Part shown: one piece after another, positions 10,156 to 56,265 of the stretch
Layout of the letters: every line of letters begins with the position of its first letter
Position numbering within the stretch: the stretch's first letter is position 1
Source of the DNA: Chondromyces crocatus
Lineage (GTDB): Bacteria > Myxococcota_A > Polyangia > Polyangiales > Polyangiaceae
Assembly (NCBI RefSeq): GCF_001189295.1
Contig: NZ_CP012159.1
Coordinates: 4,168,525 to 4,232,524, forward strand
Direction: 5' to 3'
Length of the DNA: 64,000 bases
Made by a program: the position numbers and the translations under genes
The notes under the pieces: generated by a model
Databases searched by the model: none
What the model was told of the DNA's origin: nothing
What the model saw: the letters and a program-made list of their open reading frames with translations, nothing else

Positions 10156-10520
10156 CCTCCTGGAGGAAAACGTCGATGTCCTCCAGGAGCTGGCGATGAA
10201 CCTGGAGGAGGTGCTCCGTCGTCCACCGGGACGAGGCGGACGTCCTGCCGGACGACGCCGAAGTCCTCCAGGAGGTGGGGGTGAGCCTGGAGGAGATGCC
10301 AGGTCGTCCTCGGGGAGGAGGCGGACGCCCTGCCGGACGACGCCGAAGTCCTCCAGGAGGTGGGGGTGAGCCTGGAGGAGATGCTCGGTCGTCCTGGAGG
10401 AGGAGGCGGACGTCCTGCTGGACGACGCGGAGGACCTCCAGGAGATGGCAGCGAACCTGGAGGAGGTGCCCGGTCATCCTGGAGGAGGAGACTGACGGCT
10501 TCCCGAGAGGCGTCGATGTC
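10156..10520. repeat. Tandem direct repeat, 85-bp unit x 4 plus a partial copy; each unit holds the near-palindrome cctccaggagg
   Basis: Units at 10156, 10241, 10326 and 10411 align nearly base-for-base (gacgacgccgaagtcctccaggaggtgggggtgagcctggaggagatg...). 85 is not divisible by 3, so a simple in-frame peptide repeat is unlikely. Confidence 0.8.
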
Positions 10521-16153: not shown

Positions 16154-18535
16154 GTGTCGGCAAGGACGCATGATGAGCCTCAGCGAAAAGGGCCTCGCGG
16201 CCTGTTCGCCGGGCTGAAGAAATTCAATACGAAGTTCCTGCTGGTGACGGGGCTCAGCGTGATTATCGGCGCTGTGCTCAATATTGTCGTCGCGCGTCAG
16301 GGTATTCATTCGCTCAGTCAAAAATCTGCCTATGAAATCGAGAGTGGACTCAATACTGCGAACCGCGAATACATAACCAATCATCTCGCCGACAAGGCCC
16401 AGCAGACCAACTTCGTCCTTGGCCAGGCGTATGCGGATCTCCAGACCTTCGCCGACATCGTCCAGGAGATGGTCGATCACAAAGGGGAGCTCCAGCCAGT
16501 CCTCGATGCTGCTGCGGCGCTGCCGTTCTTGCACGACAAGCTCGAGTACAACGCCAAGGGCGACTGGTATCAGAATAAATCCGACGAGCAGACCGGGGTC
16601 GTGGTCTGGGGATACAATGGCAACAAGGGGACCATCGATCCCGCCGTCCAGAAGGCCGTGGACGACACTGCGCTCCTCGATCTGATTCTCCCCTCCTTCA
16701 AGCGACGTGGTTCCGAGAAGCTCCAGATCTATCTGGTAGGGCCGAAGAGCCACCCGTTCACCCGTGTCGCCGACTATGCCGACATGGGGACGAGCTTCGA
16801 CGCGACCTATCCTGGCCATAACGAGAAGAACTGGTACGACTTCTTCTTTCCGAACCTCGCGGAGAGCTGGCAGCAGTGGTTGAAGGACCCTGCGAAGCTG
16901 AAGGCCCTTCCGTCGACCGTCACCGTGACCCCCCCCTATGCGGACGCCGCTGGTGGCGGGATCGTGCTGACGGCCTTCAACCCCATCTGGACCAAGGATC
17001 GGAAAGACTTCGCCGGCGCGGCGGCGCTCGATTTCACGCTCGGTCAGCTCATCGACTCGATCAAGGACGTTCGCCTGGCCCAGACGGGCTTCGCGTTCCT
17101 GGTGCAGTCCGACGGCAACGTGCTCGCCGTGAACGAGTCGGGCGCCACCACGTTGCGCCTCAGCTCCGGCGCGAGCGAGGAGGGCAAGGGCGTCGGCATC
17201 CTGCAGCAGTACCTGAAGAACAGCGGTTCGGAGGCGGTCGCCTCTCTCGTGCTGCCCCAGGATGATCGGATCGACTACCACGAGATCACGATCGAGGGAG
17301 AAATCTACATCATCGCGCTCCAGCGGCTCGCACGCGTGAGCACCTGGATGGATGCGCGAGGCATCGTCCCCGAGCAGTGGACGATGGGCTTCGTGGTCCC
17401 CAAACGCGAAATGTACGCCTCGCTCGTCGCGGCGCAGTCGGCGATCGAGCAGAGTCGTACGAGCATCGTCACGATGCAGATCCTCATCACGGTGGGGCTG
17501 CTCGCGGCGCTGTTGCTCGGTGTGTATCTGGTGTCCCGCCGGATGACGGGGGCGCTGGTCGAACTCTCCACCGGCGCGACGCGCATGCGGGAAGGCGACT
17601 ACAGCGTCCGGATCGATGTCCAGTCCGAGGACGAGATCGGCCAGCTCGGCGTCGCCTTCAACGAGATGGCGAGCGAGATCGAGGCCTACACGAACAACCT
17701 CGAGGACCTCGTCAGCGAGCGGACCCGCGCCCTCGAAAAGGCGAACCAGGAGATCAGCGAGCTGAACGCGAAGCTGGCCCAGGAGAACATTCGCCTGGGT
17801 GCGGAGCTGAACGTGGCCCGTCAGCTCCAGCTGATGGTGCTCCCGGCGCCTCAGGAGCTGCAGGAGATTCAGGAACTCGACATCGCGGGGTACATGGCTC
17901 CTGCCGACGAGGTCGGTGGAGACTATTACGATGTGCTCCAGAGCGACGGAATGGTGAAGATCGGTATCGGCGACGTCACCGGTCACGGCCTGGAGAGCGG
18001 CGTGCTCATGCTGATGGTGCAGACCGCCGTCCGCACCTTGCTCGCCACCAATGAGCGCGACCCCAAGAAGTTCCTGAGCATCGTCAATAAAGTCATCTAT
18101 CAGAACATTCAGCGCATCAATTCGAACAAGAACATGTCGCTGACGCTTCTGGACTACAGCGACGGCTCGCTCAAGCTCACCGGGCAGCACGAAGACCTGA
18201 TCATCGTTCGCGCCGACGGGAGCCTCGAACGATTCGACACGATGGCGCTCGGGATGCCCATCGGGCTGGACCTCGAGATCGAGGACTTCATCTCCGATGC
18301 CGAGATCAAGCTAGAGGCGGGGGACGTAGTGACTCTGTTCAGCGACGGGATCACGGAAGCCGAGGATACCGCTGCCCAGCAGTACGGGATCGACCGCCTC
18401 TGCGACGTGATCAGCAAGAACCATCAGTGCTCATCCAAGGAGATCAAGGACGCGATCATTGAAGATGTGTTGGCTCATATCGGATACAACAAGGTCTATG
18501 ACGACATCACCGTGCTGGTCATCAAGCGGGTGTGA
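16154..18535 (+). CDS. Membrane sensor protein: periplasmic domain, HAMP, PP2C/SpoIIE Ser phosphatase (RsbU/SiaA-like)
   Basis: TM1 LLVTGLSVIIGAVLNIVVA, a periplasmic domain of about 430 aa, TM2 ILITVGLLAALLLGVYLV, HAMP (DEIGQLGVAFNEMASEIE), a coiled coil, then PP2C motifs (DIAGYMAPADEVGGDYYDV...IGDVTGHGLESG...FSDGITEA). Confidence 0.85.
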   Translation: MSARTHDEPQRKGPRGLFAGLKKFNTKFLLVTGLSVIIGAVLNIVVARQGIHSLSQKSAYEIESGLNTANREYITNHLADKAQQTNFVLGQAYADLQTFADIVQEMVDHKGELQPVLDAAAALPFLHDKLEYNAKGDWYQNKSDEQTGVVVWGYNGNKGTIDPAVQKAVDDTALLDLILPSFKRRGSEKLQIYLVGPKSHPFTRVADYADMGTSFDATYPGHNEKNWYDFFFPNLAESWQQWLKDPAKLKALPSTVTVTPPYADAAGGGIVLTAFNPIWTKDRKDFAGAAALDFTLGQLIDSIKDVRLAQTGFAFLVQSDGNVLAVNESGATTLRLSSGASEEGKGVGILQQYLKNSGSEAVASLVLPQDDRIDYHEITIEGEIYIIALQRLARVSTWMDARGIVPEQWTMGFVVPKREMYASLVAAQSAIEQSRTSIVTMQILITVGLLAALLLGVYLVSRRMTGALVELSTGATRMREGDYSVRIDVQSEDEIGQLGVAFNEMASEIEAYTNNLEDLVSERTRALEKANQEISELNAKLAQENIRLGAELNVARQLQLMVLPAPQELQEIQELDIAGYMAPADEVGGDYYDVLQSDGMVKIGIGDVTGHGLESGVLMLMVQTAVRTLLATNERDPKKFLSIVNKVIYQNIQRINSNKNMSLTLLDYSDGSLKLTGQHEDLIIVRADGSLERFDTMALGMPIGLDLEIEDFISDAEIKLEAGDVVTLFSDGITEAEDTAAQQYGIDRLCDVISKNHQCSSKEIKDAIIEDVLAHIGYNKVYDDITVLVIKRV

Positions 18536-25041: not shown

Positions 25042-28000
25042 TCACGCGTCGTAACGGAACGGCGCCCTCGCCTGCGCGTAGGCCTGGATGAGCGCCCGTT
25101 CCTCCGGCGTCAGCTTCACGAAGCGCGCCCCGAAGCCCGGGGGACCCTCCCCACCGGCTGGCCGAGCCCACTCCACGACCCCCATCACCTCGATGGTCCG
25201 CCCCTCGGGGAATGGGATCCGCACGGAGACCGTCGCCCCGCGCGCCGGCGTCCGGTGGGTGGGCACGAAGATCCCCCCTTGCTCGACCACGTCCTGCTCC
25301 GGCCCCGCCTGGTAGAAGTTCGCCGGACTGTTCCCGCCGAGCTTCGCCTCGAACCGCGGCGCTGGCGGCCCTGAGGGTCGTCCCCGGGTGAGTGCTTCCT
25401 TGAGCTTCTCGTCCAGGGAGCGCACCAGCGCCTCGACCTCGCTGAGGTGCTGCTCCACCGCACGGACCCCGAACGCGCTCTGGGTTGCCGACTTCGCGAG
25501 CGGCGCCACCGTCTGCTCCACGATCGACAGGTACTGCGAGACCACCTCGGACACCGAGGTATCGGTCTCCACCTGGACCTCCACCTTCGGCTGGGCGAGC
25601 GACCGCATCGCCGCCGAGAGGCGCTGCAGCTCCGGCGAAAGCCAGCTCTTGAGATCCCGCTCCTTCGCCCCGTCCTGGCTCGCGGTGACCGCGCCCCCGA
25701 TCGCCCCCCGGATCCCTTCGAGCTGCTCCGCCAGCATCGTCAAGGTCCCCGTCACCCGCACCACCGGGTCGTCGTCCTTGCCGCCCATCCGCTTGATGCG
25801 CTGGAAACCTCGCTTGATCTCGTCCCAGCGCGCCTCCTGCTCTGCCGAGAGCCTCCCCCGCATCTCGGCCAGCTTCAGCAGGTTCTGCTCCGCGCCGCTC
25901 GTGAGCGTCTGCGACTCGCTCGTGTAGTGGTCGTCCACCAGCCGGTCGATTTCCGCGTCCGTGTGCGCCGAGACCACCTTCTCCGTGAGCTTGTTCATGT
26001 TGCGGTAGCTGCCTTGCAGCTTGAACGGCGGCTCCGTGCGGAAGGCGTCCTCCTGCGAAGCGCTCCGGATGTACTCCTGGTTCACGGCCAGCAGCACCTT
26101 CTGCACCCGGAACAGGCGCTTCAGCACCTCCACGATCTCGGTGACCTCCGCCGCCGAGTAGGCGTAGCTGAAGTCCGTCGACGCGACCTCCTCCCCTTGC
26201 GCCAGCTTGACGAACCGATGCACGTCCGCCGGCTCTCGCCCTGCGAGCGGGGCGAGGGTCGGGTTCGACGTGAGCGCGTTCTCCAGGTAGCTCAGCGCGA
26301 AGATCGACTCCTTCCCGTCGAGGATGTCGCCCAGGTTGTACGTATCGGCCCGGTTCGAGAGCATGTCGGGGATCTGGAACCGCGCGCCGGACTCCGTGTA
26401 CGGGTTACCGGCCATCACCACACAGAACTTCTTCCCGCGCAGATCGTAGGTCCGCGTCCTGCCGCGCCAGACGCCCTCGATCCGCCGCTGCGCGTCGCAC
26501 AGCGAGATGAACTTCTGGAGCAGCTCCGGGTGCGTGTGCTGGATGTCGTCGAGGTACAGCATCACGTTGTTCCCCATCTCCAGCGCCAGGTTGATCTTCT
26601 CCACCTCTTGCCGCGCCGTCGCGTTGGGCGCCTCGGAGGGATCGATGGAGGTCACGTCGTGCCCCAGCGACGGGCCGTTCACCTTCATGAACACGAGCCC
26701 CAGCTTGCTCGCCACGTACTCCATCAGGGTCGTCTTGCCGTACCCGGGAGGCGAGATCAGCAGCAGCATGCCCATCAGGTCGGTGCGCTTCCCCTCGCCG
26801 GCCGACCCGAGCTGCTTCGCCAGGTTCGCGCCGATGAGCGGCAGGTACACCTCGTCGATCAGCCGGTTGCGCACGAACGACGTCAGCACCCGGGGCGAGA
26901 ACTCGTCGAGCCGCAGTCGCTGCTTCTCACGCTCCACGATCTCCGAACGCAGCTTGCGGTAGGCGCGGTAGCGGGGCATCCGCTCCCGCATCATCTCGCC
27001 CACCCGTGCGAGGAACTCGTCGAGCCGCAGCGTCAGCGCCCGCTCCCGGATGCGCGGGTGTTGCCCCAGGAGCCCCTCGACCCGCGCCTCCACCACCGCC
27101 GCGCTCGGCTCACGATCGAGCCGTCGCTCCGTCACCAGCACCACCGCGGCCTCGCGCACCAGGTATCCCAGGTGCGACCGCTGCGCGTCCCTCGACACGA
27201 ACGCCTCGAGCCAGGCCTGGGCCAGTGCGAGCTGCGCCGCGGGCTGAGGTTCGAGCTGCCGCAGGTCCTCTTCCAGCGCCCCGCGTCCGCCCTCCAGGTC
27301 CAGGTGGGCGAGGAGCGCGTCCCGCAGCTCGAACGCCCCTGTGCTCGTCACGAAGCGCGGATGATCGGCGCACAGCTCCTCCACCAGGTAGCGCGCCGAG
27401 AGGCGCACCTCTCCCTTGCCCGGCTCGATACCATGCGCCTTGGCGGCAGCTTCCACCGCCTGCTCCACCTCGGACGCCAGCGCATCCAGCGCCGACCCCG
27501 AGCTGCCCGACGGCTTCGCTTGCGGCTTCGACGCCTCCGGATCCTCCGCGACCGTCGCCTTCGCCTCCAGCTTCACGGCGACCTCGAGAAGCTGCGCCCG
27601 GAGCCGCCCCAGGCTTCGCGCCCGCCGGTGCAACACCTCCCGCGCGGCCGGCGCCATCGACGCCCAGCACAGGCACCCCAGGGCCCGCGCCCCGCTCGAA
27701 TACCGCAAGAGCCCCGCGGTCGACCGCAGCGCCAGCAGCTTCTCCAGGATCAGCGCGGTATCCCCATCGTGCACCCCGCGCTCGTAGCCCTCATCGTGGC
27801 GCTCGGCCGAGAAGGTCCGCACCACCGCGAGCAACCCCTCGTTCGGCCCTTGCGCCATCCTTCCCGTCGGACCCGCGTCCGACACCACCGACAGCGCCGC
27901 GTCCCGCAGCCCGGCGATGGACAGCCCCGCGCGCCCCGCCTCGGCATCCTCCAGCATCGACAGCGCCAGCAGCTCGCCGCGGTACACCTCCGCCGTCTCG

Positions 28001-30774
28001 CTGACCAGCTGCTGATCCCACAGCTCCCGCGCCGCGTTCAGCGCCGGATCGTCGATCGTCTCGAAGAAATCCGTGCCCGTCAGGTGCAGCGACAGCGCCC
28101 CGTGCTGCGGCACCAGCGTCAGCTCCAGCGGCTGCGTGTTCACGTTGAACTTGTGCCGCCCCAGCCGGATGACGCTGGTCCCCTCTTCGAACAGGTCCTC
28201 GCGATCCCGGAGCAGCCGGTGCGCATCCTGACGCGCCGACTTCAGCCGCGACTCCACCTCGTCGCTCTTGACCGAGTCCCCGAGCTTCGACAGCTCCCCG
28301 GCAAGATCGCGCACCTTCGCGACCATCGGGTCCGTCGCGAAGTAGGCGTTCAGCTCGTCCGCGTTCGCAAAGCTCCGCGCCCGCCGCACGACCCCTTGCA
28401 GGATCCTGTCGGCCGCGCCCACGAGGTTCTGGACCCGCCGCTGCCGCTCGTCCACGAGCTGCTGCCGCCGCGCCCCGATCGCCTCGTTCACCTCTTCCCG
28501 CTTCGCCGCCAGCTCCGAGAGGAACTCGTCGAACTCGCCGAAGCGCCCCTCCAGCTCCTCCAGCTGCACGAGGAGCTTCGACAGCTCGGTGTCGCACCGC
28601 TCCGGCGTGTCGCAGGCCGCCGCCGCGCTCGCCACGCTCTGGCCGAACAGCTTGAACTGCGCCCCGAACTCGGCCCGTCCCTCGGCCCCGCGGAGATCCC
28701 GCGTCCTCGCGTTCAGGATCGCCCGCGCCCGGTTGAGCTGCGCGTAGACCTCGCTCACCCCTTCCAGGATCCGCGTGCGCGCCGTCGGATCGTCCACCTT
28801 CAGCCCGGCCACGATCTCGCTGAGCAGCGACAGGCCGTCGTTCACCCCGTCGAGGTCTGCCTTGAAGGGCTGAAGCTCGCTCGACTTCTTCACCCCCTCG
28901 ATCTGATCCACCAGCGCGCCCAGCCGGTCCGTCAGCGGCTTGAACGCCGCGTCCCCCAGGAGGAACGCCGCCGCCGCCGCGCTCACCTCGTCGAACCGCG
29001 CGACGACCTCGGCCTCCAGCGCGTCCACCCGCGGGAGGTCCATGTACTTCAGCTCGCGCATCGTGATCAGGTGCCCGCGCTGCTTCCGCAGCTCCGTCAG
29101 CGCCCGCATGAATGCGTCCACGCTCTGCAGATCGTCGGGCCGCAGCCCCGACAGCACCCGCCGCTGCGTCTCGTCCGCCTCGGCCAGCGCCTGCGCCGCC
29201 CTCGCCCGGATCGCCTCGACCTTCTCGAACTCGTCGATGATGCTCTCGGCGACCTTGCGCAGCTCGCGCACCACCGTCGAGAGATCGCCTGCCTCCTCGT
29301 GACCGAGCCAGTAGTAGGCGTCGACCATCCGATCGCAGGTCTTGATCACGTCCTCGAAGGTCAACCGCGTCGGCTGCTCGCCCACGCAGAGCCGCCGCAA
29401 GCTGAGCGCCTCCGAGATCCCCCGCACGAGATCCGGGTTCCCCACCTTCGCCAGGTACGACCCGTCCGTCGGCACGGACGCCGCGTACTCCGCCGTGGTG
29501 AACGGCGTCTGCCAGATCTGCATCGGGTGGACGCGCGTCGCCTCGTCGCCCGTCGCCCGGAAGATCACCATCTTCCCGTCATCGAACAGGCTGTACCCGT
29601 GGCAAGGGATCGGCGTCGCGATCTCCTTCCGGATCACGTTGTACGGGAAGAGCAGGTACCTTCCGTCCGACAGCCGGTGGAAGACGTAGAGCACGTCCTC
29701 CCCGTTCGGCGACCGGATCACCCGCTCGAACAGCAGATCGTCGGCGCGCTCCTCGAACTTCTTGCTCTCCCCGGTGAGCAGGTAATACCCGTTCGGGAAG
29801 ACGATGCCCTGATCCTCGGGCAAGGTGAGGCAGGCCTGCCCGATCGCATCGAGCCGCGTCACCTTCTTGAGCCGGCTGTTGTAGACGAGGTAGCGGTAGT
29901 CCTGCTCCCGGAACGGCTTGATCTTGAGCAGGATCAGCGTCCCCAGCTTCGCGTACCGGATCTCCGCGTCGTCGAGCCCCTGGTTCGCGTCTTCCACCGG
30001 CTCGCTGTAGATCCCGAGCCCCGACGCCGTGTTGTTCTCCACCTTGACGGTCAGGTCACCGCCCACCGTCTCCACGAAGATCTCGTCGAGGATCGACACG
30101 TGCGGGTGCTTCCCCGCCACCTGATCCTCGCGCGTCGTCGCCTTCCACTCGAAGTCGTGCGAGCGCGGCCGGAGGTTGTCGTTCTCCCCGCGCCCGTCCA
30201 TGTACTTGATCCGGCCGGAGCCATCGACGCTCCACCGGAACACCTTCACGTCCCGCTCCGTGCTCCCCGTCTGGAAGATGGCGAGCAACCGCGTCTCCGT
30301 GCGCCGGAGTTGCAGGAGCCGCGTCTCCTTCGTGTAGCGGAACAGATCCTTGAAGTCCTTCACGAAGGCTGGATCCGCGAGGAACGCCTCCCCCTCCTCC
30401 AGCGGCACCGGCGCGAAGTCGTGCCCCTCCGCCGTCTGCGTGAAGCGGTGCAGCGCGAACACGTCGCTCACCTGCGCGTCCTGCTTCAGGCCCAGCACCA
30501 CCAGGTAGCCGACCAGCAGCCGCCCGCGGATGCTCACGATGTCCCGCGGGACGCAGTTGTGCTCGGTCCGGATCCGCTCGGTGGCCACGAGCTGCAGCTC
30601 CGTCCCACCGAACGCCTGCTTCCGGCGCTCGTTCAGCGTCTCGGCCTTCTTGCCGAGCGTCTCCGCGTGCTCGAGCAAGCGCCGGCGGATGACCTCGTAA
30701 CTCCCGCCCTCCAGGGCCTCCGCGCCACTCGACGCGGAGGCACCGGCGGCGGCCTCCGGTGCCTTGGATGTCAT
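25042..30774 (-). CDS. Giant (1910 aa) AAA+ ATPase (AAA_5/MoxR-dynein-like) with long coiled-coil regions and a C-terminal PilZ-like domain
   Basis: Single uninterrupted frame. Walker A LLLISPPGYGKTTLMEY, Walker B NVMLYLDDIQ, then CVVMAGNP. The last ~90 aa (RTPARGATVSVRIPFPEGRTIEVMGVVEW...GFGARFVKLTPEERALIQAY) look like a PilZ beta-barrel; the RxxxR-like RTPAR is present, DxSxxG is not obvious. Starts 90 bp downstream of flotillin-3 on the same strand. Confidence 0.7.
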   Translation of the reverse strand: MTSKAPEAAAGASASSGAEALEGGSYEVIRRRLLEHAETLGKKAETLNERRKQAFGGTELQLVATERIRTEHNCVPRDIVSIRGRLLVGYLVVLGLKQDAQVSDVFALHRFTQTAEGHDFAPVPLEEGEAFLADPAFVKDFKDLFRYTKETRLLQLRRTETRLLAIFQTGSTERDVKVFRWSVDGSGRIKYMDGRGENDNLRPRSHDFEWKATTREDQVAGKHPHVSILDEIFVETVGGDLTVKVENNTASGLGIYSEPVEDANQGLDDAEIRYAKLGTLILLKIKPFREQDYRYLVYNSRLKKVTRLDAIGQACLTLPEDQGIVFPNGYYLLTGESKKFEERADDLLFERVIRSPNGEDVLYVFHRLSDGRYLLFPYNVIRKEIATPIPCHGYSLFDDGKMVIFRATGDEATRVHPMQIWQTPFTTAEYAASVPTDGSYLAKVGNPDLVRGISEALSLRRLCVGEQPTRLTFEDVIKTCDRMVDAYYWLGHEEAGDLSTVVRELRKVAESIIDEFEKVEAIRARAAQALAEADETQRRVLSGLRPDDLQSVDAFMRALTELRKQRGHLITMRELKYMDLPRVDALEAEVVARFDEVSAAAAAFLLGDAAFKPLTDRLGALVDQIEGVKKSSELQPFKADLDGVNDGLSLLSEIVAGLKVDDPTARTRILEGVSEVYAQLNRARAILNARTRDLRGAEGRAEFGAQFKLFGQSVASAAAACDTPERCDTELSKLLVQLEELEGRFGEFDEFLSELAAKREEVNEAIGARRQQLVDERQRRVQNLVGAADRILQGVVRRARSFANADELNAYFATDPMVAKVRDLAGELSKLGDSVKSDEVESRLKSARQDAHRLLRDREDLFEEGTSVIRLGRHKFNVNTQPLELTLVPQHGALSLHLTGTDFFETIDDPALNAARELWDQQLVSETAEVYRGELLALSMLEDAEAGRAGLSIAGLRDAALSVVSDAGPTGRMAQGPNEGLLAVVRTFSAERHDEGYERGVHDGDTALILEKLLALRSTAGLLRYSSGARALGCLCWASMAPAAREVLHRRARSLGRLRAQLLEVAVKLEAKATVAEDPEASKPQAKPSGSSGSALDALASEVEQAVEAAAKAHGIEPGKGEVRLSARYLVEELCADHPRFVTSTGAFELRDALLAHLDLEGGRGALEEDLRQLEPQPAAQLALAQAWLEAFVSRDAQRSHLGYLVREAAVVLVTERRLDREPSAAVVEARVEGLLGQHPRIRERALTLRLDEFLARVGEMMRERMPRYRAYRKLRSEIVEREKQRLRLDEFSPRVLTSFVRNRLIDEVYLPLIGANLAKQLGSAGEGKRTDLMGMLLLISPPGYGKTTLMEYVASKLGLVFMKVNGPSLGHDVTSIDPSEAPNATARQEVEKINLALEMGNNVMLYLDDIQHTHPELLQKFISLCDAQRRIEGVWRGRTRTYDLRGKKFCVVMAGNPYTESGARFQIPDMLSNRADTYNLGDILDGKESIFALSYLENALTSNPTLAPLAGREPADVHRFVKLAQGEEVASTDFSYAYSAAEVTEIVEVLKRLFRVQKVLLAVNQEYIRSASQEDAFRTEPPFKLQGSYRNMNKLTEKVVSAHTDAEIDRLVDDHYTSESQTLTSGAEQNLLKLAEMRGRLSAEQEARWDEIKRGFQRIKRMGGKDDDPVVRVTGTLTMLAEQLEGIRGAIGGAVTASQDGAKERDLKSWLSPELQRLSAAMRSLAQPKVEVQVETDTSVSEVVSQYLSIVEQTVAPLAKSATQSAFGVRAVEQHLSEVEALVRSLDEKLKEALTRGRPSGPPAPRFEAKLGGNSPANFYQAGPEQDVVEQGGIFVPTHRTPARGATVSVRIPFPEGRTIEVMGVVEWARPAGGEGPPGFGARFVKLTPEERALIQAYAQARAPFRYDA

Positions 30775-39407: not shown

Positions 39408-42023
39408 TCAGCCGTCCTGCGGTGCGCTCTGTGCCGACGTCCCTGGCGTGGAGGTGCCTTGCGAGCCTCCTGCGCGTGGCGGGGCGCCCTGGCCAGCCGC
39501 TCCCTGCGCGGGGAGATCCTGTGCAGGTCCCCCTGGCGTCGTCGTGCCTTGCTGGAGGCGCGCGCGGGCCGAGGCGTCCTGTGCCGACGGCTCCTGGTCT
39601 GACGACTCTTGCGTCGACGCGCCCTGTATCGCCTGCGCCGTCGCGCCCGGAGTCGACGGCGCTCGTGTGGGCAGGCCCTGCGCTCCTTGCGGCGCTTGCG
39701 CGGGCGCCGTGGAGCCCATCGACGTCGAGCCGGGCACGGTCGGCGCTGGGGGCGCAAGCACCTCGTGGAGGGCCTGCTCGGGAGCGGGCGCCTCCGCGGC
39801 GGGGACCTCGGGCGCGGGCGGCGCCGCTTTCATGGGCGCGAGATCCTGGGCTGCCGCCTCCTGCGCGCCCGAGAGGAGCTTCTCCGACCCACCGGGCGCG
39901 CTCGCGTTCGACGGATCCGGCGCCTTGCCCACCAGCGCCTCGCCACGCGAGATCACGCCGACCAGCAGGCCTGCCAGCAAGGCCCCGAGCGCGATCATGC
40001 TCGCCCACTTGCCCCATCCGCGCCCGCTCTTCTGAGCGCGCTCTTGCGGGACCATGAACACCATCGAGCGCGCCCCGTCGCCGAGCGAGGCTGGCTGACC
40101 CGGGATGGGCGTCCCCGTGCAGGGCGCGCCCAGCGGAGGCAGCGCACTCACGCGGAACGTCGCACTCGTCCCCGCCGACGGGATGAACGGCACGTCGTCC
40201 GACGTGGCCCCGTCTTCGGACGCCCTGTCGGCGCGCCCCGTCTCGGGCGAGCGCGACCCGATGTCCTCGTCGACCGAGCGGTCCACCACCTGCACCGAGA
40301 CCTCGGGATTCCTCCGCGGAGGGAGCGCCTCGGCCATCGACGCCAGCGAGTCCACGACGGGCGTGTGCGGCATCGGCGTCTCTGGCGCTTCCGCGTCCTC
40401 GTGCAGGAGCGCGCTGGCGTCGAGCGGGCGCGTGTCCGGCGGCGGCGTCGCCGGCCCGTACAGCGGCGTCAGCGGACCCATCGGCGTATCGGGCGCGCTG
40501 ATGGGCGACCGCGCGGCCGAGGCCAGACGCCGCACGTCCCGCTCGGGCAGGTTCGAGTCCCGCGTCACCGGCGTCTTCGAGGACGGCACCGGCGTCTTCG
40601 AGGACGGCACCGGCGTCTTCGACGAAGGAGCCTGCGCGTCGCTCGCTGCCGCACCTGCCGCACCTGCCGCGCCTGCCGCACCTGCCGCGCCTGCCGCGCC
40701 TGCCGCGGCCACGGGCATGTTCCGCTTCGCCGTGGCGGCCATGGGTGGCGGTGGCGAACTCTTCACCACCACCGACGACGTCCTCACCACGACCGGCGTG
40801 ACCACCGCGCCGGTCGGCGCCTTCATCGTCGCCGGGACTGCATCGGGCCAGTTGTCCAGATCGAGCACCACCTCGACCTCGGACGGCGGCGACCGTTTGC
40901 TGAGCCCGAAGTCGGGCCGCGTCGGCCGACCCTTGGCCGAGTCGGGCGGCTCTTGCGACACCACCGTCGTCGGCCGCTTCTGCATCGTCGTCGCCTTCGC
41001 CAGCGCCTCGAGCAGCTCCGCCCGCGAGCACGGCCGCGTCGGCTCCTCGTCCGCCGACCTCGGCCTCCGCAGCGTCGGCGGCCCGTCCACCTGCGCCCGC
41101 GGGAACACGCCCAGGACTTCCCGGGCCAGCGCATCGTCGTCGCTCGGCAGCTCCGAGAGCTGCAGGATCCTGTCCTCGTGCGCCATGCACGGCGGCGCCT
41201 TCGGCGTCAGCTCGATGATGAAATCCCCCGAGCTCTCCACCGTCCCGTCGCACACGATCGCCGTCCAGCGCACGCTCGACCGGATGAGCAGCGCCGCGAG
41301 CCGCGTCGCCACCTGCGCCAGCTTCCCGAACGGCTCGTCCTCGTCGTGGACGATGATCAGCCGCCCCGTCGTCTTCTCCGGGTTCGCCATCAGCGCAGGC
41401 CCTGGCGGCCCGCACGACGGCGCGGGGATGTCGGCGAAGCTCTCCAGGTAGCGCCGCACGAGCGGCGGCCCCTGCAACGGCGCGTGCGTCATGCACCGCG
41501 CGTACGCCCGGTAGAACGGCCGCGCCCCACGCGACCGCTCCCAGGCCGACACCGCCCCCGACCCGCCCACGTCGCTCCGCGGCTCCCCGGCCGCATAGCC
41601 TGCCACGTGGCTGAACAGCGAGAGCGCTGCGCCCTCCAGCGCACTCTGGCTGAACTGCCGGTCCACCGTTGCGATCGCGTGCGCGAACGCCGGCTCCTCG
41701 GCGCCAGCGGCATCGATCATGCCGCTCACGCGCGTCCCGAAGATCAACCCGACCGCCCCGCGACCCGGCTCGCGCACCATGTCGTCGCGAGAGAGGTTGC
41801 CGATGGCGAACGCGAACCTGGAGCCTGGCCGTGGCTCCAGCGACTTCATCAGCCGCGCGAGCCGCGTCACATGCGGCCGGGTGAGCTCCCCGCGAGGATC
41901 TGGCGTACAGATGAAGTCGAGCTGGTGCCCTGGCACGTCACCGAACAGGGCATGAACCCATCCGGCGCCATCGGGCGCCACATACCGCAGCGGCTCATAC
42001 GCCGCGACCTTACTGGCGAGCAT
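39408..42023 (-). CDS. Hypothetical 871-aa protein: ~350-aa globular N-domain, low-complexity middle with short tandem peptide repeats, one TM, Ala/Pro/Gln-rich C-terminus
   Basis: Long ORF with (AAGAAG)n and (SSKTPVP)x3 peptide repeats and the TM WASMIALGALLAGLLVGVI. No family recognised. Confidence 0.4.
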   Translation of the reverse strand: MLASKVAAYEPLRYVAPDGAGWVHALFGDVPGHQLDFICTPDPRGELTRPHVTRLARLMKSLEPRPGSRFAFAIGNLSRDDMVREPGRGAVGLIFGTRVSGMIDAAGAEEPAFAHAIATVDRQFSQSALEGAALSLFSHVAGYAAGEPRSDVGGSGAVSAWERSRGARPFYRAYARCMTHAPLQGPPLVRRYLESFADIPAPSCGPPGPALMANPEKTTGRLIIVHDEDEPFGKLAQVATRLAALLIRSSVRWTAIVCDGTVESSGDFIIELTPKAPPCMAHEDRILQLSELPSDDDALAREVLGVFPRAQVDGPPTLRRPRSADEEPTRPCSRAELLEALAKATTMQKRPTTVVSQEPPDSAKGRPTRPDFGLSKRSPPSEVEVVLDLDNWPDAVPATMKAPTGAVVTPVVVRTSSVVVKSSPPPPMAATAKRNMPVAAAGAAGAAGAAGAAGAAGAAASDAQAPSSKTPVPSSKTPVPSSKTPVTRDSNLPERDVRRLASAARSPISAPDTPMGPLTPLYGPATPPPDTRPLDASALLHEDAEAPETPMPHTPVVDSLASMAEALPPRRNPEVSVQVVDRSVDEDIGSRSPETGRADRASEDGATSDDVPFIPSAGTSATFRVSALPPLGAPCTGTPIPGQPASLGDGARSMVFMVPQERAQKSGRGWGKWASMIALGALLAGLLVGVISRGEALVGKAPDPSNASAPGGSEKLLSGAQEAAAQDLAPMKAAPPAPEVPAAEAPAPEQALHEVLAPPAPTVPGSTSMGSTAPAQAPQGAQGLPTRAPSTPGATAQAIQGASTQESSDQEPSAQDASARARLQQGTTTPGGPAQDLPAQGAAGQGAPPRAGGSQGTSTPGTSAQSAPQDG

Positions 42024-42511
42024 GCGTCTCCTCCGACACGGGCTGCCCGGTCATCGTGCTTCGGGCCCCGGAGCAGCCCTGCCCCCCCGGGGGAATGGAC
42101 CGGACCATTCGCGCCCGAGCAGACCTCTGGAGGGTCGGCGCAGCCGCGATAGCCTACCGTGGACTCCGATGACCGAGCCCCCGCCAGCGCTCGCTCGGAC
42201 CCACGCAAATCGTTCGCACCATGCAGCGCGTCCCGAACGGGGAAACCGCCATGAATCGCGAGCCAGCGCACCGATTGACAGGCCTGTTCGTCGTGCGCGT
42301 CCCCCCCGTCCACCGAGGTCCGCCGCGAGCGGCGCGAGCGACGGCCGCGACGCTCCTGCGCGGAGGAGACGGGCGCCCGGGCGTGGATGACGAACAGGGG
42401 ACGAGAGGACGAGGACGGGGATGGGGACGGGGACGGGTATGGGGACGAGAGGGATGCGTCAGCGAGCGCAGAGAGGTGGGTGAAGCGTCGCGCTCGCTGA
42501 CGGGGGGCCGA

Positions 42512-43492
<981 letters not shown>

Positions 43493-43761
43493 GAGACATT
43501 CCTCCGGAAACTACGTCGGCCGGAAATCGACCGCGCAGCCCTGGAATAGGCACGCCCCGAGCGGTTCGCCATAACAGCCTATTTCAGTCTATTTCAGTCT
43601 GTAACACCGGGCGATACGTGACATTGCATCATAGAGGGAGAGGTGCGTGCTTCGCCTACGTCTCCTGACCATCGCGCCAGCGACACGCGGGGATCGGTTC
43701 GAGAGAAATTTCGAATGGTTGCCGGCAGAACGGCTGTCGACGGGCCGGGTCGAGGTCCGTT

Positions 43762-44087
43762 TTGCGACGGTCCTGGGTAGTTCTGCGACGGTCCTGGGTA
43801 GTTGCCCAAGCGGTCCTGGGTAGTTGCTCAAGCGGTCCTGGGTAGTTGCTCAAGCGGTCCTGGGTAGTTGCTCAAGCGGTCCTGGGTAGTTGCTCAAGCA
43901 GTCCTGGGTAGTTGCTCAAGCAGTCCTGGGTAGTTGCTCAAGCGGTCCTGGGTAGTTGCTCAAGCGGTCCTGGGTAGTTGCTCAAGCAGTCCTGGGTAGT
44001 TGCCCAAGCAGTCCTGGGTAGTTGCTCAAGCGGTCCTGGGTAGTTGCTCAAGCGGTCCTGGGTAGTTGCTCAAGCGGTCCTGGGGGG
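43762..44087. repeat. Highly regular tandem array, 22-bp unit (gcggtcctgggtagttgctcaa) x ~15 with three variable positions; preceded by a small (tatttcagtc)x2-3 repeat at 43575-43600
   Basis: Read directly from the sequence. Copies are perfectly phased every 22 bp, with only G/A (gcRgtcc), T/C (ttgcYcaa) and first-unit variants. Repeat GC (~59%) is below the local ~70%. There are no spacers, so it is not CRISPR. Confidence 0.9.
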
Positions 44088-45048
44088 CGGGGTCGCTGGC
44101 GCGTCTCCTCCGGAGGTCGGATCGCCTTCGGATGCCGGTGTCTGGCTCTCCACGCGCGCTCGCGGCGGCGCGGGCGTCTTCTGGAACATTTCGGCGAGGA
44201 TGCGCTCCGTCGCGTCGCTGAGCACATCCCGGTGCAGCCGACCATGCTCGCGGAAGAAGTGCTGCGCCATCCGCCCATCCAGCGCGCGCGTCGCGAGGAG
44301 ATCGAAGGCGGCGCGCTCGTCCAGCGTGCCTTCGGAGGCCACCACCCGGGCGTCCGGGTGCAGCTCCTCCTGGTCGAAGCGCCCCTCCCAGTGCCCTCCC
44401 AGCGTCACCGAGAAGTACTGGAAGGCGGCGTTGCCTGGGCGAGCCATGTGCGACACCGTGACCACGGCCTGAAGCCGGTTCCATTCCTCGGGAGGCATCG
44501 TCTTCCGCCAGCCTTCCAGCGTGGCGTGCATGGTCTCGATCTGATCGCGCGCCGACCCCTCGGCGTTGTGGATGATGTCCGGCGACTGCGCGCGCACGTA
44601 CGCGATCAGCGTCTCCCGCGTGACGTGGCCTTCGGTGAGCGCTCGCTGGAGCAACGCGTGCGCCGACGCGAAGAGGCGCCGCTGGCGGGGAAGCTCGTCG
44701 ACGGTGAAGCGTCGCCGTGGCAGGCTCGCCTCGGCCAGCGCGAGACGCTCGCCGAGCACGGTGAGGCGCGCGCGGGCCGCCTCGTCGAAGGGCGAGGGTA
44801 GCCCCCAGAGGGTGAGGTACACGGCGAGCGGCAGGTGGCTCATCGCCTTCAGCTCGTGGTAGCGGCGGGTGCGGGCGAGGCCTTCGAAGCGCTCTCCGCG
44901 GTGCCGCAGGATCAAGCTGTCGTCGATCTGCGCGACGATGGGACTCATGCGCGAAAGCGCCTCGGCGCGATGAGCCGCGTAGGCGTCATGGAAGGCCTGG
45001 TCGATGACGCCGAGGGGATCGCTCTCGTCGAGGCCGACGTCGATCATG
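44070..45048 (-). CDS. Hypothetical protein (326 aa); its last codons run into the 22-bp repeat array
   Basis: Start chosen at MIDVGLDESDPLGV, whose ATG overlaps the RidA stop (ATGA). The upstream part of the 833-aa ORF is low-complexity and unsupported. No family recognised. Confidence 0.4.
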
Positions 45049-45445
45049 GCGCCTGCTCCGGCAGGGCGACGGCGTCGGCCTCGATCTCGATCAGCATCGC
45101 CGGGTCGATGAGGCGTGAGACCTGCACCATCGAGGTCGCCGGGGGACACGCTGCGAAGAAGGCGCCGTGCGCGCGTCCGAATGCCTCCCAGCGGTCGATG
45201 TCGGTCACGAACATCCGCGTGCGCACGATGGCGCGCCGGTCGAGCCCCAGCTTGCGCAGCGCCTCCTCGATGATCTCCAGGCACCGCGCCGCCTGAGCTT
45301 CCGCGTCTCCTGGCGCGTACACCGTGCCCTCGTTCGTGATCGGCGCCGACCCCGAGACGTAGACGTGGTGCCCGGCTCGAACGGCTCGGCAGTAACTGAC
45401 CTTCGCCTCCCAGGGGGCCCCGGAGAACACACGCTCGAACGACAT
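45044..45445 (-). CDS. ridA: RidA/YjgF/TdcF (Rid) family protein
   Basis: 133 aa. RAVRAGHHVYVSGSAPI...AEAQAARCLEIIEEALRKLG...IVRTRMFVTDI...MVQVSRLIDPAMLIEIEADA is the Rid-family pattern. Confidence 0.8.
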   Translation of the reverse strand: MSFERVFSGAPWEAKVSYCRAVRAGHHVYVSGSAPITNEGTVYAPGDAEAQAARCLEIIEEALRKLGLDRRAIVRTRMFVTDIDRWEAFGRAHGAFFAACPPATSMVQVSRLIDPAMLIEIEADAVALPEQAP

Positions 45446-45531
45446 GCCAGAAACGTAGCACCGGCCACCGGCCTTTCTCGTCCAGTCGGTCCTGGCGCGG
45501 CGGGCACCCTGGCCCTACCTTCGAGAGCTGC

Positions 45532-46983
45532 ATGCGGGACCCCGCGCCACGCTCCAGCCGCTCCGCGGAGGCCGTCGCCGTCCTCGTCGCGGTGGCGCTG
45601 CACGTGGGGCTCCTGGGGACCGGGCTGCTCCCCTGGGCCGAGCGGCCCCTGGCCCAGGCCGACGCCGACGATGCGGTGACCACCTGGTTGGAACTGGAAG
45701 ACGTGCGCCCTGCGCCCGGCGGCGGGGATATGCCCACGGAAGCGAGCACGCCGGAGCCCCCCGGAGCCCCTCGGGCGCCTGCCGAGGCCCCTCCTTCCGA
45801 CGACCCGCTCGCGCGCAACGGCGCTTCCGAGGCTCGCCCCGCGGCGGTCGTCCCGTCGCCACCCGCGCCCACGGAGCCCACCCCGACCCCACCTCCCGCG
45901 GTCGAGCCTCCCGCTCCCCAGCTGCCGTCGGACCCCCTCGATCCGCCACCCGCGCCGCCCGAGGCCCCGTCGCCCGTTGCGCCGCCCATCGCGCCTCCCG
46001 CCGCGGTCCCGGTCGAGCCTCCTGCCATCGCGCAGCTTCCAGGCACACCCCCCTCGGAGACGCCCTCCGCGCCGCCCGAGCCGTCTTCACCTGCCGCCCC
46101 TTCGCCAGGCAGTCCCGACGAGTACGGCGGCGCTCCACCACCCGAGGTGGCGCTGGCCCCAGGCCTCGGTGGCGCGCCCGTGTGGACCTTGCCGGGCGTC
46201 CTCGCGCCTCGACCCGAAGCGACCGCCGCGCCCACCTCGGCTCCAGCGGCCGCGCCGGTCGACCCGACCATCGCGGGCAAGGTGCTCACCTCCAGCATCC
46301 AGACCCGCGACAAATCCCTCGGCTTGCAGATGCCCGCGGCCGGCGTCGTCGCCACCTCCCTCGCCGACGCCGTGCGCAGCTCCACCGCGCCCCTCGACGC
46401 CCGCGCCAAGTTCGAGGTGAAGCTCGGTGCCGACGGCAGCGTGCAGGGCGTGCGTGTCCTCAGCGCCACCGCCGGCGACGCGATCGAGTGGGAGCGCGCC
46501 GCCAGGAACGCAGCGCAGGCGCTCGCCTCGCGCACCCTCCAGGTCGGCGAGGCCGGACGCGACGGCGTCACCGTGGTGGTGAAGGTCGAATCGAAGGTCG
46601 TCTACCCCGCCGGCACCAAGACCAAGGCCGACGTCGAGCCGGTCTGCGCCGAGGACGTGGTCCTCGAGATGGTGCGGAACCTGGAGCAGCTCGGGTCGAG
46701 CGAGAAGCCCACGCGCATCCAGCTCGGCGACGGCAGCTTCTGCATCCCCATCGGCCTCCGCGTCCGGGGCGACGTGGCCAACATCGGCGCCGTCCAGCAG
46801 CGCGTGGTCAGCTCCAGCTTCGACGTCGTGCTCCCCGGCTCGATGAAGCTGCAAGCCGAAGAGGTGCTGCCCGTCGACACCCGCGCCCCCTGGCTCAAGG
46901 ACCTCCCCTCGAAGGGCCCGCGGCTACCCCCGCCGAAGAAGTGGCAGAAGAAGAAGAAGCCCAAGAAGAAAAAGGACCCGTAG
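45532..46983 (+). CDS. TonB-family protein: TM with SxxxH-type His, long Pro-rich spacer, TonB-C-like domain, Lys-rich tail
   Basis: TM AVAVLVAVALHVGLLG has a His in the helix. A ~200-aa Pro-rich region has PxP repeats. The C-domain is AKFEVKLGADGSVQGVRVLSATAGDAIEWERAARNAAQ, and the tail is WQKKKKPKKKKDP. Confidence 0.5.
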   Translation: MRDPAPRSSRSAEAVAVLVAVALHVGLLGTGLLPWAERPLAQADADDAVTTWLELEDVRPAPGGGDMPTEASTPEPPGAPRAPAEAPPSDDPLARNGASEARPAAVVPSPPAPTEPTPTPPPAVEPPAPQLPSDPLDPPPAPPEAPSPVAPPIAPPAAVPVEPPAIAQLPGTPPSETPSAPPEPSSPAAPSPGSPDEYGGAPPPEVALAPGLGGAPVWTLPGVLAPRPEATAAPTSAPAAAPVDPTIAGKVLTSSIQTRDKSLGLQMPAAGVVATSLADAVRSSTAPLDARAKFEVKLGADGSVQGVRVLSATAGDAIEWERAARNAAQALASRTLQVGEAGRDGVTVVVKVESKVVYPAGTKTKADVEPVCAEDVVLEMVRNLEQLGSSEKPTRIQLGDGSFCIPIGLRVRGDVANIGAVQQRVVSSSFDVVLPGSMKLQAEEVLPVDTRAPWLKDLPSKGPRLPPPKKWQKKKKPKKKKDP

Positions 46984-53000: not shown

Positions 53001-54809
53001 GTGAGTATGAGGCGCGCCCGCCGAAAGCTCAGCCAGAACGGTCCCCTGGACAAGGAGCGTGCCTTTCGGCTCCTGTTCCGGAAGAAGACTTTCGCGTCGG
53101 TATGGCACTGGCTGGAGCGCCTGGGGGTACCGGTCCGGGATCGGCGGGACGTGGCGCAAGAGGTGTTCATGGCCGCGCACCAGAGCTTCCACACCTACGA
53201 TCCGATGCGCTCGCGTCCGGAGCGCTGGCTGAACAAGATCACGGTGCACGTGGCGGCGCATTACCGTGACCGGGCCCAGCACCGGCGTGAGGAGCTGACG
53301 CCGGACGATCATGACGATGTGGTGGACGAGCAGCCGGGCCCCGACGAGCTGATCGGTGTAGAGGAGGAGCGGCTGGAGGTGATCGACCTGCTCCAGACGC
53401 TGGACGTGGAGCTGCGTGCGGTGCTGATCGCGCACGACATCGACGGCATCCCGATGATGGAGATCGCCGATCAGCATGGGATCCCGCTGTCGACGGCATA
53501 CAAGTGGCGGGCGCGCGCGGTGAGCGCGTTCAAGGCGGCGGTGGAGCAGCGGCGTCGCGAGGAAAACGAGCGGATCGGCGGGGTGGCCATCTTCGGGCTG
53601 CTCGATACGGACGCCGTCCTGGCGACGCTGCGGCGCGCCGTGGACGCCACCCGCGCGCTGCCAGAGGAGGTCGCGGCGGCGCGGTCCGAGACGATCGAGG
53701 CGATGCGCGAGGCGTTCCTCGAGCAGGTCGGTGGTGGATCGCGGCCCTTCGAGGGGGAAGAGGGCAAGGAGGGGGGCAAGGAGGAAGCGTCGAGCGACGA
53801 GCGGGAGACGCGCGAATCCGGGGACCCGCGGGACGCGCGCGCGCTGGACGAGGGCGACACGCGCGCGCCCGGGAAGCGCGACGCTGGTGCGCAGCAGGAG
53901 GGAGGACCTGGGAGCGGGGGGTCGACCTCGGTGCGGGGTGGGTCAGAGGCGCTGCGCGGAAAGCGCGCCACGGCCGTGAAGGTGATGACGGCCTCGGTGG
54001 CAGCGCTGGGGATCACGGTGGGCGTGCTGTGGCCAAAAGCGAGCGCGACACCGCTGAACATGGCGGCGCAAGGGGGAGAAGGCTTCGTGGAGCCGGCCGC
54101 TTCTGCGCTCGTCGTCGGCGTAGCGGCCGTCGTCGGCGCTGCGGCCGTCGTCGGCGCGGCGGCGCCCGATGTGTACGCGATGGAAGCGTCTGCGTCGGGG
54201 GGGGCGGAGGCTTCCTCTGCGAGCGCGGTCTCCACGGCGATGGTGCCATCGTCGGCGAGGGGCGTCGCTGGGGGGCCGGTGCTGGGGGGCGTCGCGCCTC
54301 CGGCGGGATTTCGGAAGGGGTCGTCGCCAGGAGCGCTGCATGTCACCGCGGGGCCGGCTGCCCATGGAAGCCAGGTGCCTCGCGTGACGCCTGCGCGAAG
54401 CGTTTTCGCCGACGCCCTGTCGGTCGCCGCGACACCGGCACCAGCGGCCCCGGCCATCGCGACAGCGGCCCCGGCCATCGCGACAGCGGCCCCGGTGATC
54501 GTGGACGCTCCGGGGGAGAGGATGTCCGCGAAGGTCGCTCCCGATCAGGATTTGATCCTGTTCGATCTGGCCCGGGCTGCGCTGAAACGGAGGGATGGCG
54601 GCGAGGCCCTTCGCCTGCTCGAACAGCATACGCGCGCGGTGCGGACGACGCGCTTCGCTCCCGAGCTGATGCTGGTACGCGTCCGCGCGCTGATCCTGAC
54701 GGGCCAGGAAGGCGAGGCGCGGGTGGCCGCCAGGCGTCTGGTGAAAATTTCTCCGAGTGCGCTGCGGTGGTCCGAGGTCAGGAAGCTGGTCGAGTCGCGG
54801 ATGGACTGA
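53001..54809 (+). CDS. ECF-type sigma-70 factor fused to a C-terminal extension (TM plus Ala-rich extracytoplasmic region plus a terminal helical repeat domain)
   Basis: Region 2 (VAQEVFMAAHQSFHTYDP...WLNKITVH) and region 4 (LRAVLIAHDIDGIPMMEIADQHGIPLSTAYKWRARAVSAFK) within the first ~190 aa. Then an acidic linker, TM VMTASVAALGITVGVLW and a ~250-aa C-region, all in one frame. Confidence 0.6.
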   Translation: MSMRRARRKLSQNGPLDKERAFRLLFRKKTFASVWHWLERLGVPVRDRRDVAQEVFMAAHQSFHTYDPMRSRPERWLNKITVHVAAHYRDRAQHRREELTPDDHDDVVDEQPGPDELIGVEEERLEVIDLLQTLDVELRAVLIAHDIDGIPMMEIADQHGIPLSTAYKWRARAVSAFKAAVEQRRREENERIGGVAIFGLLDTDAVLATLRRAVDATRALPEEVAAARSETIEAMREAFLEQVGGGSRPFEGEEGKEGGKEEASSDERETRESGDPRDARALDEGDTRAPGKRDAGAQQEGGPGSGGSTSVRGGSEALRGKRATAVKVMTASVAALGITVGVLWPKASATPLNMAAQGGEGFVEPAASALVVGVAAVVGAAAVVGAAAPDVYAMEASASGGAEASSASAVSTAMVPSSARGVAGGPVLGGVAPPAGFRKGSSPGALHVTAGPAAHGSQVPRVTPARSVFADALSVAATPAPAAPAIATAAPAIATAAPVIVDAPGERMSAKVAPDQDLILFDLARAALKRRDGGEALRLLEQHTRAVRTTRFAPELMLVRVRALILTGQEGEARVAARRLVKISPSALRWSEVRKLVESRMD

Positions 54810-55486: not shown

Positions 55487-55584
55487 TTCCTGCTGCATCG
55501 CGAGCGTCGGGGCCGAGAGGCCCTGAGCCAGGGGCCGCAGTCCTCCTGCCAGGGGCCGCAGTCCTCCTGCCAGGGGCCGCAGTC

Positions 55585-56265
55585 CTAGGGAGCGGGCGAG
55601 GGGCTGGCTGGCGGTCCGGGGGGTGTGGGCTTTCCGGGGGGCGTGGCCTCCTCGGGCGCCTTCGCTGGGCGCGCGTAGCGGATGAACACGACGTGGCTGT
55701 GGCCTTCGCTCGGGGCCGTCCTGAGGGCGAGCTGCTCGCCTGCGACGAGCTTGCGGAAGTGATCCGCCGTGAGCCGCAGCCCGTGGCCGTGCGGGGAGAT
55801 GCCCTGGACCTCGTAGCTGCGGTCCTGCGGATCGGCGATGTGCGCGGCGGGGATGATGAGCTCGTGGTCGTCCTTCCCGCCGATCTGGATCTGGCAGACG
55901 TTGACGCGCTCGGGGGGCTCCTCGGCGGGGGCGCAGCGCACCAGGAGGCGGTGGATGTGTCCTCCTTCACGGCTGCAAGGGGCGCGGAGGATCTCGCCGG
56001 CGCCGAGCTTGCGAAAGTCGTCGGGGGTGAGCGTGATCGCGTGCGGGTGGCCGGCGGTGCCGGTGAGGTCGTAGGTCTTCTCGACGCAGGCCTTGATGTC
56101 GTCGAGGTGGACCTGGAAGAGGTGCCCGTGGTTCGTGCCGACGCGGGCGTCGATGCGGGTCAGGTCGGTCCTGGGCTTGCCGCACTCGTCGGCGTGGGCC
56201 GCGTCCGGGAGCAGGGGAAAGGCAGCGAGCGACGCGCCGAGATGCAGGAGGGTGCGGCGGTGCAT
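55585..56265 (-). CDS. Tat-signal secreted protein with two internal ~50-aa His/Cys-containing repeats
   Basis: MHRRTLLHLGASLAAFPLL (RR motif). Repeats TYDLTGTAGHPHAITLTPDDFRKLGAGEILRAPCSREGGHIHRLLV and SYEVQGISPHGHGLRLTADHFRKLVAGEQLALRTAPSEGHSHVVFI. Confidence 0.5.
   Translation of the reverse strand: MHRRTLLHLGASLAAFPLLPDAAHADECGKPRTDLTRIDARVGTNHGHLFQVHLDDIKACVEKTYDLTGTAGHPHAITLTPDDFRKLGAGEILRAPCSREGGHIHRLLVRCAPAEEPPERVNVCQIQIGGKDDHELIIPAAHIADPQDRSYEVQGISPHGHGLRLTADHFRKLVAGEQLALRTAPSEGHSHVVFIRYARPAKAPEEATPPGKPTPPGPPASPSPAP

Follow-up and report, generated by a model that had tools for sequence, protein, structure and literature searches.

Is a long, clean tandem repeat between two genes of a bacterial chromosome a functional element, or is it a by-product of replication? 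This question is raised by a 64,000-nucleotide stretch of the Chondromyces crocatus chromosome (contig NZ_CP012159.1; hereafter, the window), in which an array of 22-bp repeats (43768-44084, minus strand) lies between the gene for a 325-aa hypothetical protein (gene A; 44070-45047, minus strand) and the gene for a 326-aa protein (gene B; 42512-43492, minus strand). The anatomy of the array, its positional orthology with arrays in relatives, the turnover of its unit and an apparent copy-number polymorphism are demonstrated below. As judged by comparison of three lineages, the array is the distal part of a conserved module upstream of gene B, and it is probably more than random junk.

Anatomy of the 22-bp array

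Tandem Repeats Finder (TRF) resolved the array into 14.5 copies of a 22-bp unit with 95% matches and a score of 562, the highest in the window. This count and a unit-by-unit listing agree with an initial annotation of the same DNA, which had reported about 15 copies. The array is 317 bp long and has unique sequence on both flanks. A pattern search of the window recovered 13 full copies of the unit with at most two mismatches at 43788-44073 and none outside the array, the expectation from shuffled sequence being zero. On the sense strand of gene B the unit is CCCAGGACCGCTTGAGCAACTA. The low-coordinate end consists of two degenerate copies, one of them at 21-bp spacing, and the high-coordinate end of a partial copy at 44074-44084; the degenerate units, placed at the end proximal to gene B, are the older ones. 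Three positions of the unit vary, as had been described: G or A at position 3, T or C at position 18, and an A at position 1 in the first copy. The G/A variants follow one another along the array in the order GGAA-GGAA-GG, which points to duplication of whole blocks of several units.

The guanine-plus-cytosine (GC) content of the array is 0.58-0.61, versus about 0.70 in its surroundings. Each strand meets a stop codon at intervals of 66 bp and the period is not a multiple of three, so the array is non-coding; both the lower GC content and the lack of an extended open reading frame (ORF) were thus correctly noted at the outset. The start-to-start spacing is exactly 22 bp for a unit of 22 bp, which leaves no unique spacers between copies, and the locus was accordingly rejected as a clustered regularly interspaced short palindromic repeat (CRISPR) array, again as first proposed. 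Its head-to-tail and spacerless arrangement, the high identity of its copies and the absence of a preserved reading frame are the features of a minisatellite, or variable number of tandem repeats (VNTR), and the array is a genuine non-coding member of this class. Exact-sequence scans of genome, metagenome and viral collections with the unit gave no matches; the C. crocatus genome itself appears to lie outside the genome collection, so that this result is silent on further copies in its own genome.

Positional orthology and unit turnover

In C. crocatus the intergenic region between genes A and B (43493-44069) has a simple order, read on the minus strand: the array, a 167-bp spacer (43601-43767), a 10-bp direct repeat, a ribosome-binding site and the gene B ATG. 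The array lies at about -276 to -592 from this ATG. The 10-bp repeat, GACTGAAATA, was detected by TRF in 2.6 copies at 43575-43600, at -83 to -108 from the ATG and 167 bp from the array, as the initial annotation had indicated. From its homologs in relatives, this TGAAAT repeat is a conserved promoter-proximal motif of gene B. Repeat-pair finding and pattern searches also located an inverted copy of the motif, CTGGAATAGGC (43541-43551, plus strand), which forms an inverted repeat with GCCTATTTCAG (43577-43587), with 25 bp between the arms and an overlap with the TGAAAT repeats; CTGGAATAGGC may be a candidate operator half-site in the promoter region of gene B.

In Chondromyces apiculatus, genes A and B lie on one contig, 30 kb apart, and a single 22-bp unit occurs in two arrays (L001 14263-14448, 8.5 copies, and 17187-17252, 3 copies). 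These arrays are parted by 2720 bp with inverted ends, GGGGTGGTGGCC and GGCCACCACCCC, and AGGT is present on both outer sides; this arrangement is most simply read as an array of about 11.5 units, in one of which a transposable element has inserted. Beyond the second array, the DNA aligns with the C. crocatus spacer (63.7% identity over 91 nt, E=3e-5, blastn), and the match takes in the array-abutting flank CCGTCGC-AAA-GG and the block GCCCGGTGTTA...TGAAA. In alignments made with MAFFT and by global alignment the homology of the spacer likewise includes the flank CCGTCGCAAAACGG, which abuts the array. Between the spacer and gene B of C. apiculatus lies a 23-kb island (L001 17445 to L044 9903, covered except for about 10 kb in its middle) that carries genes for a DnaB-like helicase, a tyrosine integrase and a lambda O-like initiator fragment. 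The island is bounded by an 11-bp direct repeat, GCGTGAAAGAG (L001 17434-17444 and L044 9904-9914), which indicates that the TGAAA motif in the promoter region of gene B was its integration site; ATCGGCCGGGCGC at L001 14504, considered as its attachment site, was dropped in favor of this direct repeat. Once the island is taken out, about 279 bp would separate the C. apiculatus array from the gene B ATG, compared to 276 bp in C. crocatus, and this matching distance makes the two arrays positional orthologs. The upstream locus of gene B is also a hot spot at which two different mobile elements have inserted.

The smaller of these elements (L001 14449-17186) has 12-bp terminal inverted repeats and a 568-aa ORF without a Pfam or PHROG match, and looks like an unclassified transposable element.

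A third lineage, a more distant uncultured relative represented by metagenomic contigs L045, L046 and L047, encodes a gene B ortholog with 61% identity in an otherwise different gene neighborhood. There too a 22-bp array is present, followed by a 10-bp repeat, CGTGAAATGG, in 4.2 copies, 73 bp before the ATG of the gene B ortholog. A fourth relative, L048, has a contig that begins within three CGTAAYGG repeats about 150 bp before its ATG; the 10-bp repeats mark the exact point from which all four lineages can be aligned. Gene B alone accompanies the array in each of the three array-bearing lineages. The initial annotation had tied the array to gene A, which it touches: the TGA stop of gene A (44070-44072) does lie within the first repeat unit. 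This adjacency is found only in C. crocatus, and in C. apiculatus synteny is kept on the far side of gene A and lost at its 3' end, so that the comparative data tie the array to gene B, downstream of it. By the same comparisons the module is older than the split between C. crocatus and C. apiculatus. An earlier suggestion that the array is the remnant of a recent amplification is not supported in that form: the homogenization of the units is recent, but the locus, with its positional ortholog in C. apiculatus, is old.

While its position is conserved, the sequence of the unit is not. The units of C. apiculatus (CGCCAGGTGGCCCTTGCGTGGT) and of the metagenomic relative (GCGCTCGGATCGGGGAGGAGCG) show no significant similarity to that of C. 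crocatus or to each other in any rotation or on either strand (rotation test, p=0.12-0.99). The shared flank sets the C. crocatus and C. apiculatus units in register, and both then start with CCAGG(A/T)CC. The C. crocatus units closest to gene B grade into the flank sequence, the pattern expected of an old, continuously homogenized array. Within lineages the units are 88-95% alike and between lineages their sequence is fully replaced, a pattern that is, on this sequence evidence, one of concerted evolution; outside the spacer and the promoter-proximal region, alignable similarity is lost between lineages. Eukaryotic satellites and minisatellites under concerted evolution resemble the array: period and position are kept, and units that are uniform in any one lineage have diverged fully from those of others. 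The array differs from them in being one short locus on a bacterial chromosome, linked to the upstream region of a single gene.

There is an apparent variation in copy number among the metagenomic strains. In short-read metagenome assemblies, the array of L045 has 14.5 units and that of L046 and L047 has 5.5, nine fewer, in contigs that are 99.8% identical over 20 kb.

A second apparent difference between these strains concerns a 7-bp repeat, GCACAGC, which is present in 8.7 copies in L045 (14475-14535) and in 4.7 copies in L046 (14475-14507), between an OmpA-like gene and an LPG-synthase gene.

Regulatory element or product of slippage

We place at about even chances the reading that the array is an old slippage-driven VNTR, homogenized in each lineage, which probably serves gene B as an upstream element of variable length. 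Its regulatory part draws on the VNTR upstream of clbR in the colibactin island of Escherichia coli, an 8-bp unit (ACAGATAC) in 2-20 copies, where 5 versus 19-20 units change expression about 2-fold (PMC7364221). At the gene B locus, replication slippage or unequal recombination would add or remove whole 22-bp units, and the length of the array would tune gene B transcription like a 'tuning knob'. The number of units could act by altering how long the DNA upstream of the promoter is and how it is phased, or by setting the count of sites for a lineage-specific factor. Both the clbR VNTR and the array consist of head-to-tail non-coding repeats upstream of a gene, with a copy number that differs between close strains, in our case apparently so. 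On the other hand, the unit here is 22 bp instead of 8 bp, the array is located about 280-590 bp upstream of the start codon, and the locus is conserved across species with its unit replaced, which we have not seen described for the clbR VNTR. Among the options listed in the initial annotation, a copy-number-variable regulatory element fits best, the conserved gene B module and the 14.5 versus 5.5 units being in its favor, and its regulatory effect being proposed by analogy.

The contingency loci of Neisseria, Haemophilus and Helicobacter carry units of 1-8 bp within or between core promoter elements or inside an ORF. As in those loci, where a hypermutable tract gives heritable and reversible variation, the repeat tract lies in cis to a gene. 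In contrast to them, its unit is 22 bp, it lies far upstream (-276 to -592 from the ATG), and each step would add two helical turns, so that the rotational phase would change little.

Several results weigh against a regulatory role. Distant gene B lineages, with 26-30% identity, largely do without the array: three of the four examined have none upstream, and in the fourth there is a 37-bp array, unrelated and also found in another intergenic region of the same genome, which implies that the wider gene B family does not need it. In C. apiculatus the array has been cut from gene B by 23 kb and split, and its units are still 93% alike; homogeneity thus requires no link to gene B. The difference of 14.5 versus 5.5 units comes from assemblies of a kind prone to repeat collapse, and a scan of the region for sigma-70-like promoters predicted none.

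The shared period also loses weight as evidence in view of how repeats are distributed in these genomes. A TRF census of non-redundant Myxococcota DNA, about 600 kb in all (the loci compared here plus the window), gave about 355 arrays, about 10 arrays with a score of at least 100 being present in the window itself, so that the claim of the initial annotation that such minisatellites are rare in bacterial chromosomes fails for this lineage. Periods of 11 (17 arrays), 21 (45 arrays) and 22 bp (8 arrays) peak relative to neighboring values of the same residue class modulo 3, with 1-3 arrays for each of the periods 19, 20, 23, 25 and 26. Duplications spanning roughly one or two turns of the helix thus seem to be preferred in Myxococcota. 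Other short 22-bp arrays are found at unrelated loci (L010, L030, L034 and L050). As a period of 22 bp is generally favored, its sharing among the three lineages is weak evidence for constraint or selection.

These data lend themselves to a neutral explanation, in which a single duplication upstream of gene B was kept by gain-biased slippage and its period reflects a mutational preference. In mutation accumulation in Myxococcus xanthus, 69% of the insertions and deletions were single-unit changes in tandem repeats, with 21 gains versus 6 losses for units of up to 16 bp (PMC11069108), a bias that could keep neutral arrays alive. The three units share no motif and show no significant RNA structure, and in a wedge model the arrays were no more bent than arrays of shuffled units. 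The favored periods, the distant gene B lineages without an array and the uniformity of the uncoupled C. apiculatus array all fit this explanation as well. It is harder to reconcile with an array that has kept its position while neutral sequence became unalignable between lineages (in which the proteins of genes A and B are 61-68% identical), with a module found in two different genomic contexts, and with unit numbers that are high (11.5-14.5) in three lineages. On balance, a neutral array maintained by slippage has an appreciable chance, short of even, and is nearly as likely as a regulatory VNTR; the remaining explanations, even taken together, are improbable.

Iterons, such as those of R6K, pPS10, the lactococcal theta plasmids and the Chlamydia plasmid, are typically direct repeats in tandem, spaced at 22 bp, and an iteron-like array was another option of the initial annotation. 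The units would then serve as binding sites for a protein, which could be the gene B product itself, acting as replication initiator, partition adaptor or autoregulator and co-evolving with the unit in each lineage. The direct repeats are indeed of iteron size (17-22 bp) and phased at 22 bp, and lie upstream of a gene for a protein of about 300 aa, with a unit that differs between relatives, as in theta plasmids and phage origins. Moreover, the C. apiculatus units vary mainly within 6 nt in their middle, 16-17 bases being constant, the unit changes alongside the only co-conserved gene, and the basic C-terminal tail of the gene B protein is conserved. Apart from the phasing, this option does not fit. 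Iteron sets usually have 3-9 copies, compared to 14.5 here, and the array is chromosomal, with no par, rep or mobile-element genes among the neighboring ORFs scanned against Pfam. Neither a winged-helix Rep is adjacent nor an AT-rich stretch present (minimum GC 0.58), DnaA-box matches are at chance level with none in the intergenic region, and the gene B model is a helical bundle without a DNA-binding fold. A blastn search with the array against a plasmid collection gave no match, and gene B has no homologs in 72,556 plasmids and 50,697 phages. For C. apiculatus, a function as iteron set of the island was rejected, both arrays being located outside the direct repeats of the island. A partition centromere of the parC or sopC type was rejected as well, with no parA, parM or adaptor domains in the flanking genes scanned. 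An iteron origin or a partition site is therefore unlikely, with only a slim chance for the iteron- or centromere-like explanation as a whole.

Lower still is the probability that the array is a relic or an accessory of a mobile element, left at an integration hot spot upstream of gene B. The 23-kb integrase island between spacer and gene B and the 2.7-kb inverted-repeat element inside the array of C. apiculatus could be taken in its favor, as could gene A of C. crocatus, which lacks its native 3' end and stops in the array, consistent with a deletion that ended there. However, given the position of the GCGTGAAAGAG direct repeats, the island includes neither the spacer nor either of the C. apiculatus arrays. 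No mobile-element gene lies near the array in C. crocatus or in the metagenomic relative, and the order of array, spacer and motif is identical in the three lineages. We give slightly less credence again to a transcribed RNA element, be it a 3' untranslated region of gene A, a leader of gene B or an AGGA-based sponge for a protein or the ribosome. No minus-strand terminator was predicted between genes A and B, so that read-through across the array is possible, and the C. crocatus and metagenomic units carry AGGA/GGAG on the sense strand. Against it, neither strand folded better than shuffled sequence (z = -1.4 and -1.3), Rfam gave no match at E up to 1 across 42000-46000, GGA is absent from both strands of the C. 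apiculatus unit, and the upstream gene able to drive transcription differs among the three lineages. An artifact of assembly, with the repeat misassembled or inflated in the deposited genome, has a negligible probability: tandem repeats are prone to wrong copy numbers, but this one has ordered internal variants and unique flanks along its 317 bp, and two other lineages, assembled independently, have like arrays at the orthologous site.

Readings of the units as sigma-54 or CsrA sites were dropped after inspection by eye, the spacing being wrong and the C. apiculatus unit lacking GGA.

Returning to the length-variable upstream element, a more demanding version of it is that the array is a selected cis-element in which period and number of units matter and their sequence does not. 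We regard this version as unlikely. It could take the form of a two-helical-turn scaffold that would bind a fast co-evolving factor of the Polyangiales, perhaps the gene B protein by way of its basic tail, or of a scaffold that would set the geometry of the promoter. If it were true, gain and loss of units would give a social bacterium that forms fruiting bodies a graded and heritable range of expression states, and the array would stand for a conserved class of bacterial 'regulatory minisatellite' so far undescribed. Should unit number tune gene B, long-unit repeats far upstream of a promoter would serve as heritable expression dials in myxobacteria and give an initial way into the biology of a protein family specific to the Polyangiales. 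If slippage were only neutral, the locus would be a clean bacterial minisatellite that has outlived its own sequence, with position and period kept and every base of the unit replaced. The array would then also be a ready-made marker for strain typing in Chondromyces.

Neighboring genes and further repeats

Homologs of gene A occur across the Myxococcota, and the gene comes after a RidA gene. In an alignment with 21 homologs, the C-terminal tail of its C. crocatus product is about 20 aa longer.

Gene B belongs to a Polyangiales-specific family of proteins of about 300 aa with few close relatives. Its AlphaFold2 model is a long all-alpha helical bundle with a basic C-terminal tail (predicted local distance difference test score, pLDDT, 84.5). 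No match to the protein was found in Pfam, NCBIfam or PADLOC and no meaningful one among PDB sequences, a fold search with the model gave no informative match, and a metagenome scan found no relatives.

Upstream of the distant gene B homologs (26-30% identity) in L049-L055, a conserved block of the form CCGTTGAGCC-N-GAGACGGA(A/C)GTCGTCGCCGCG is located about 60-100 bp before the gene; in that subfamily it may serve as a promoter element or a leader element. In L049, a metagenome-assembled genome of the Polyangiales, a 35-37-bp unit beginning with CGCGTGACGCGCGTGCCTCCCTTTGCGC is arrayed in two intergenic regions (1785-1932 and 4594-4759), one of these arrays being located 240 bp upstream of the distant gene B homolog; it looks like a dispersed array family. 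Among the Sorangium loci examined no gene B homolog was found. One of them, from Sorangium sp. So ce388, has a 43-bp array of 3.2 copies, equivalent to seven copies of 22 bp (L004 8066-8218), about 1.1 kb downstream of a gene A ortholog.

At the edge of the C. crocatus array proximal to gene B, a terminator-like hairpin with a T-run is found on the plus strand (43737-43763). The T-run is the reverse complement of the flank CCGTCGCAAAACGG, conserved in C. apiculatus, and the hairpin could end a short transcript divergent from gene B. RNA folding of the spacer (43601-43767) was no better than that of shuffled sequence. A small plus-strand ORF at 43647-43823 was rejected as a gene, with a low third-position GC content by eye and no frame-specific conservation in tblastx against C. 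apiculatus.

Elsewhere in the window, perfect 21-bp tandem duplications (2.6-2.9 copies, 100% identity) are found at 40566-40622, 54442-54495 and 55527-55586, apparently in coding sequence, and an 85-bp repeat in 3.9 copies at 10170-10497 is also apparently within a coding region. Further from the array, a gene on the minus strand (25045-30774) encodes a 1910-aa protein that combines DUF3686 (E=1.5e-202), DUF7902, an AAA_5 ATPase and a C-terminal PilZ domain.
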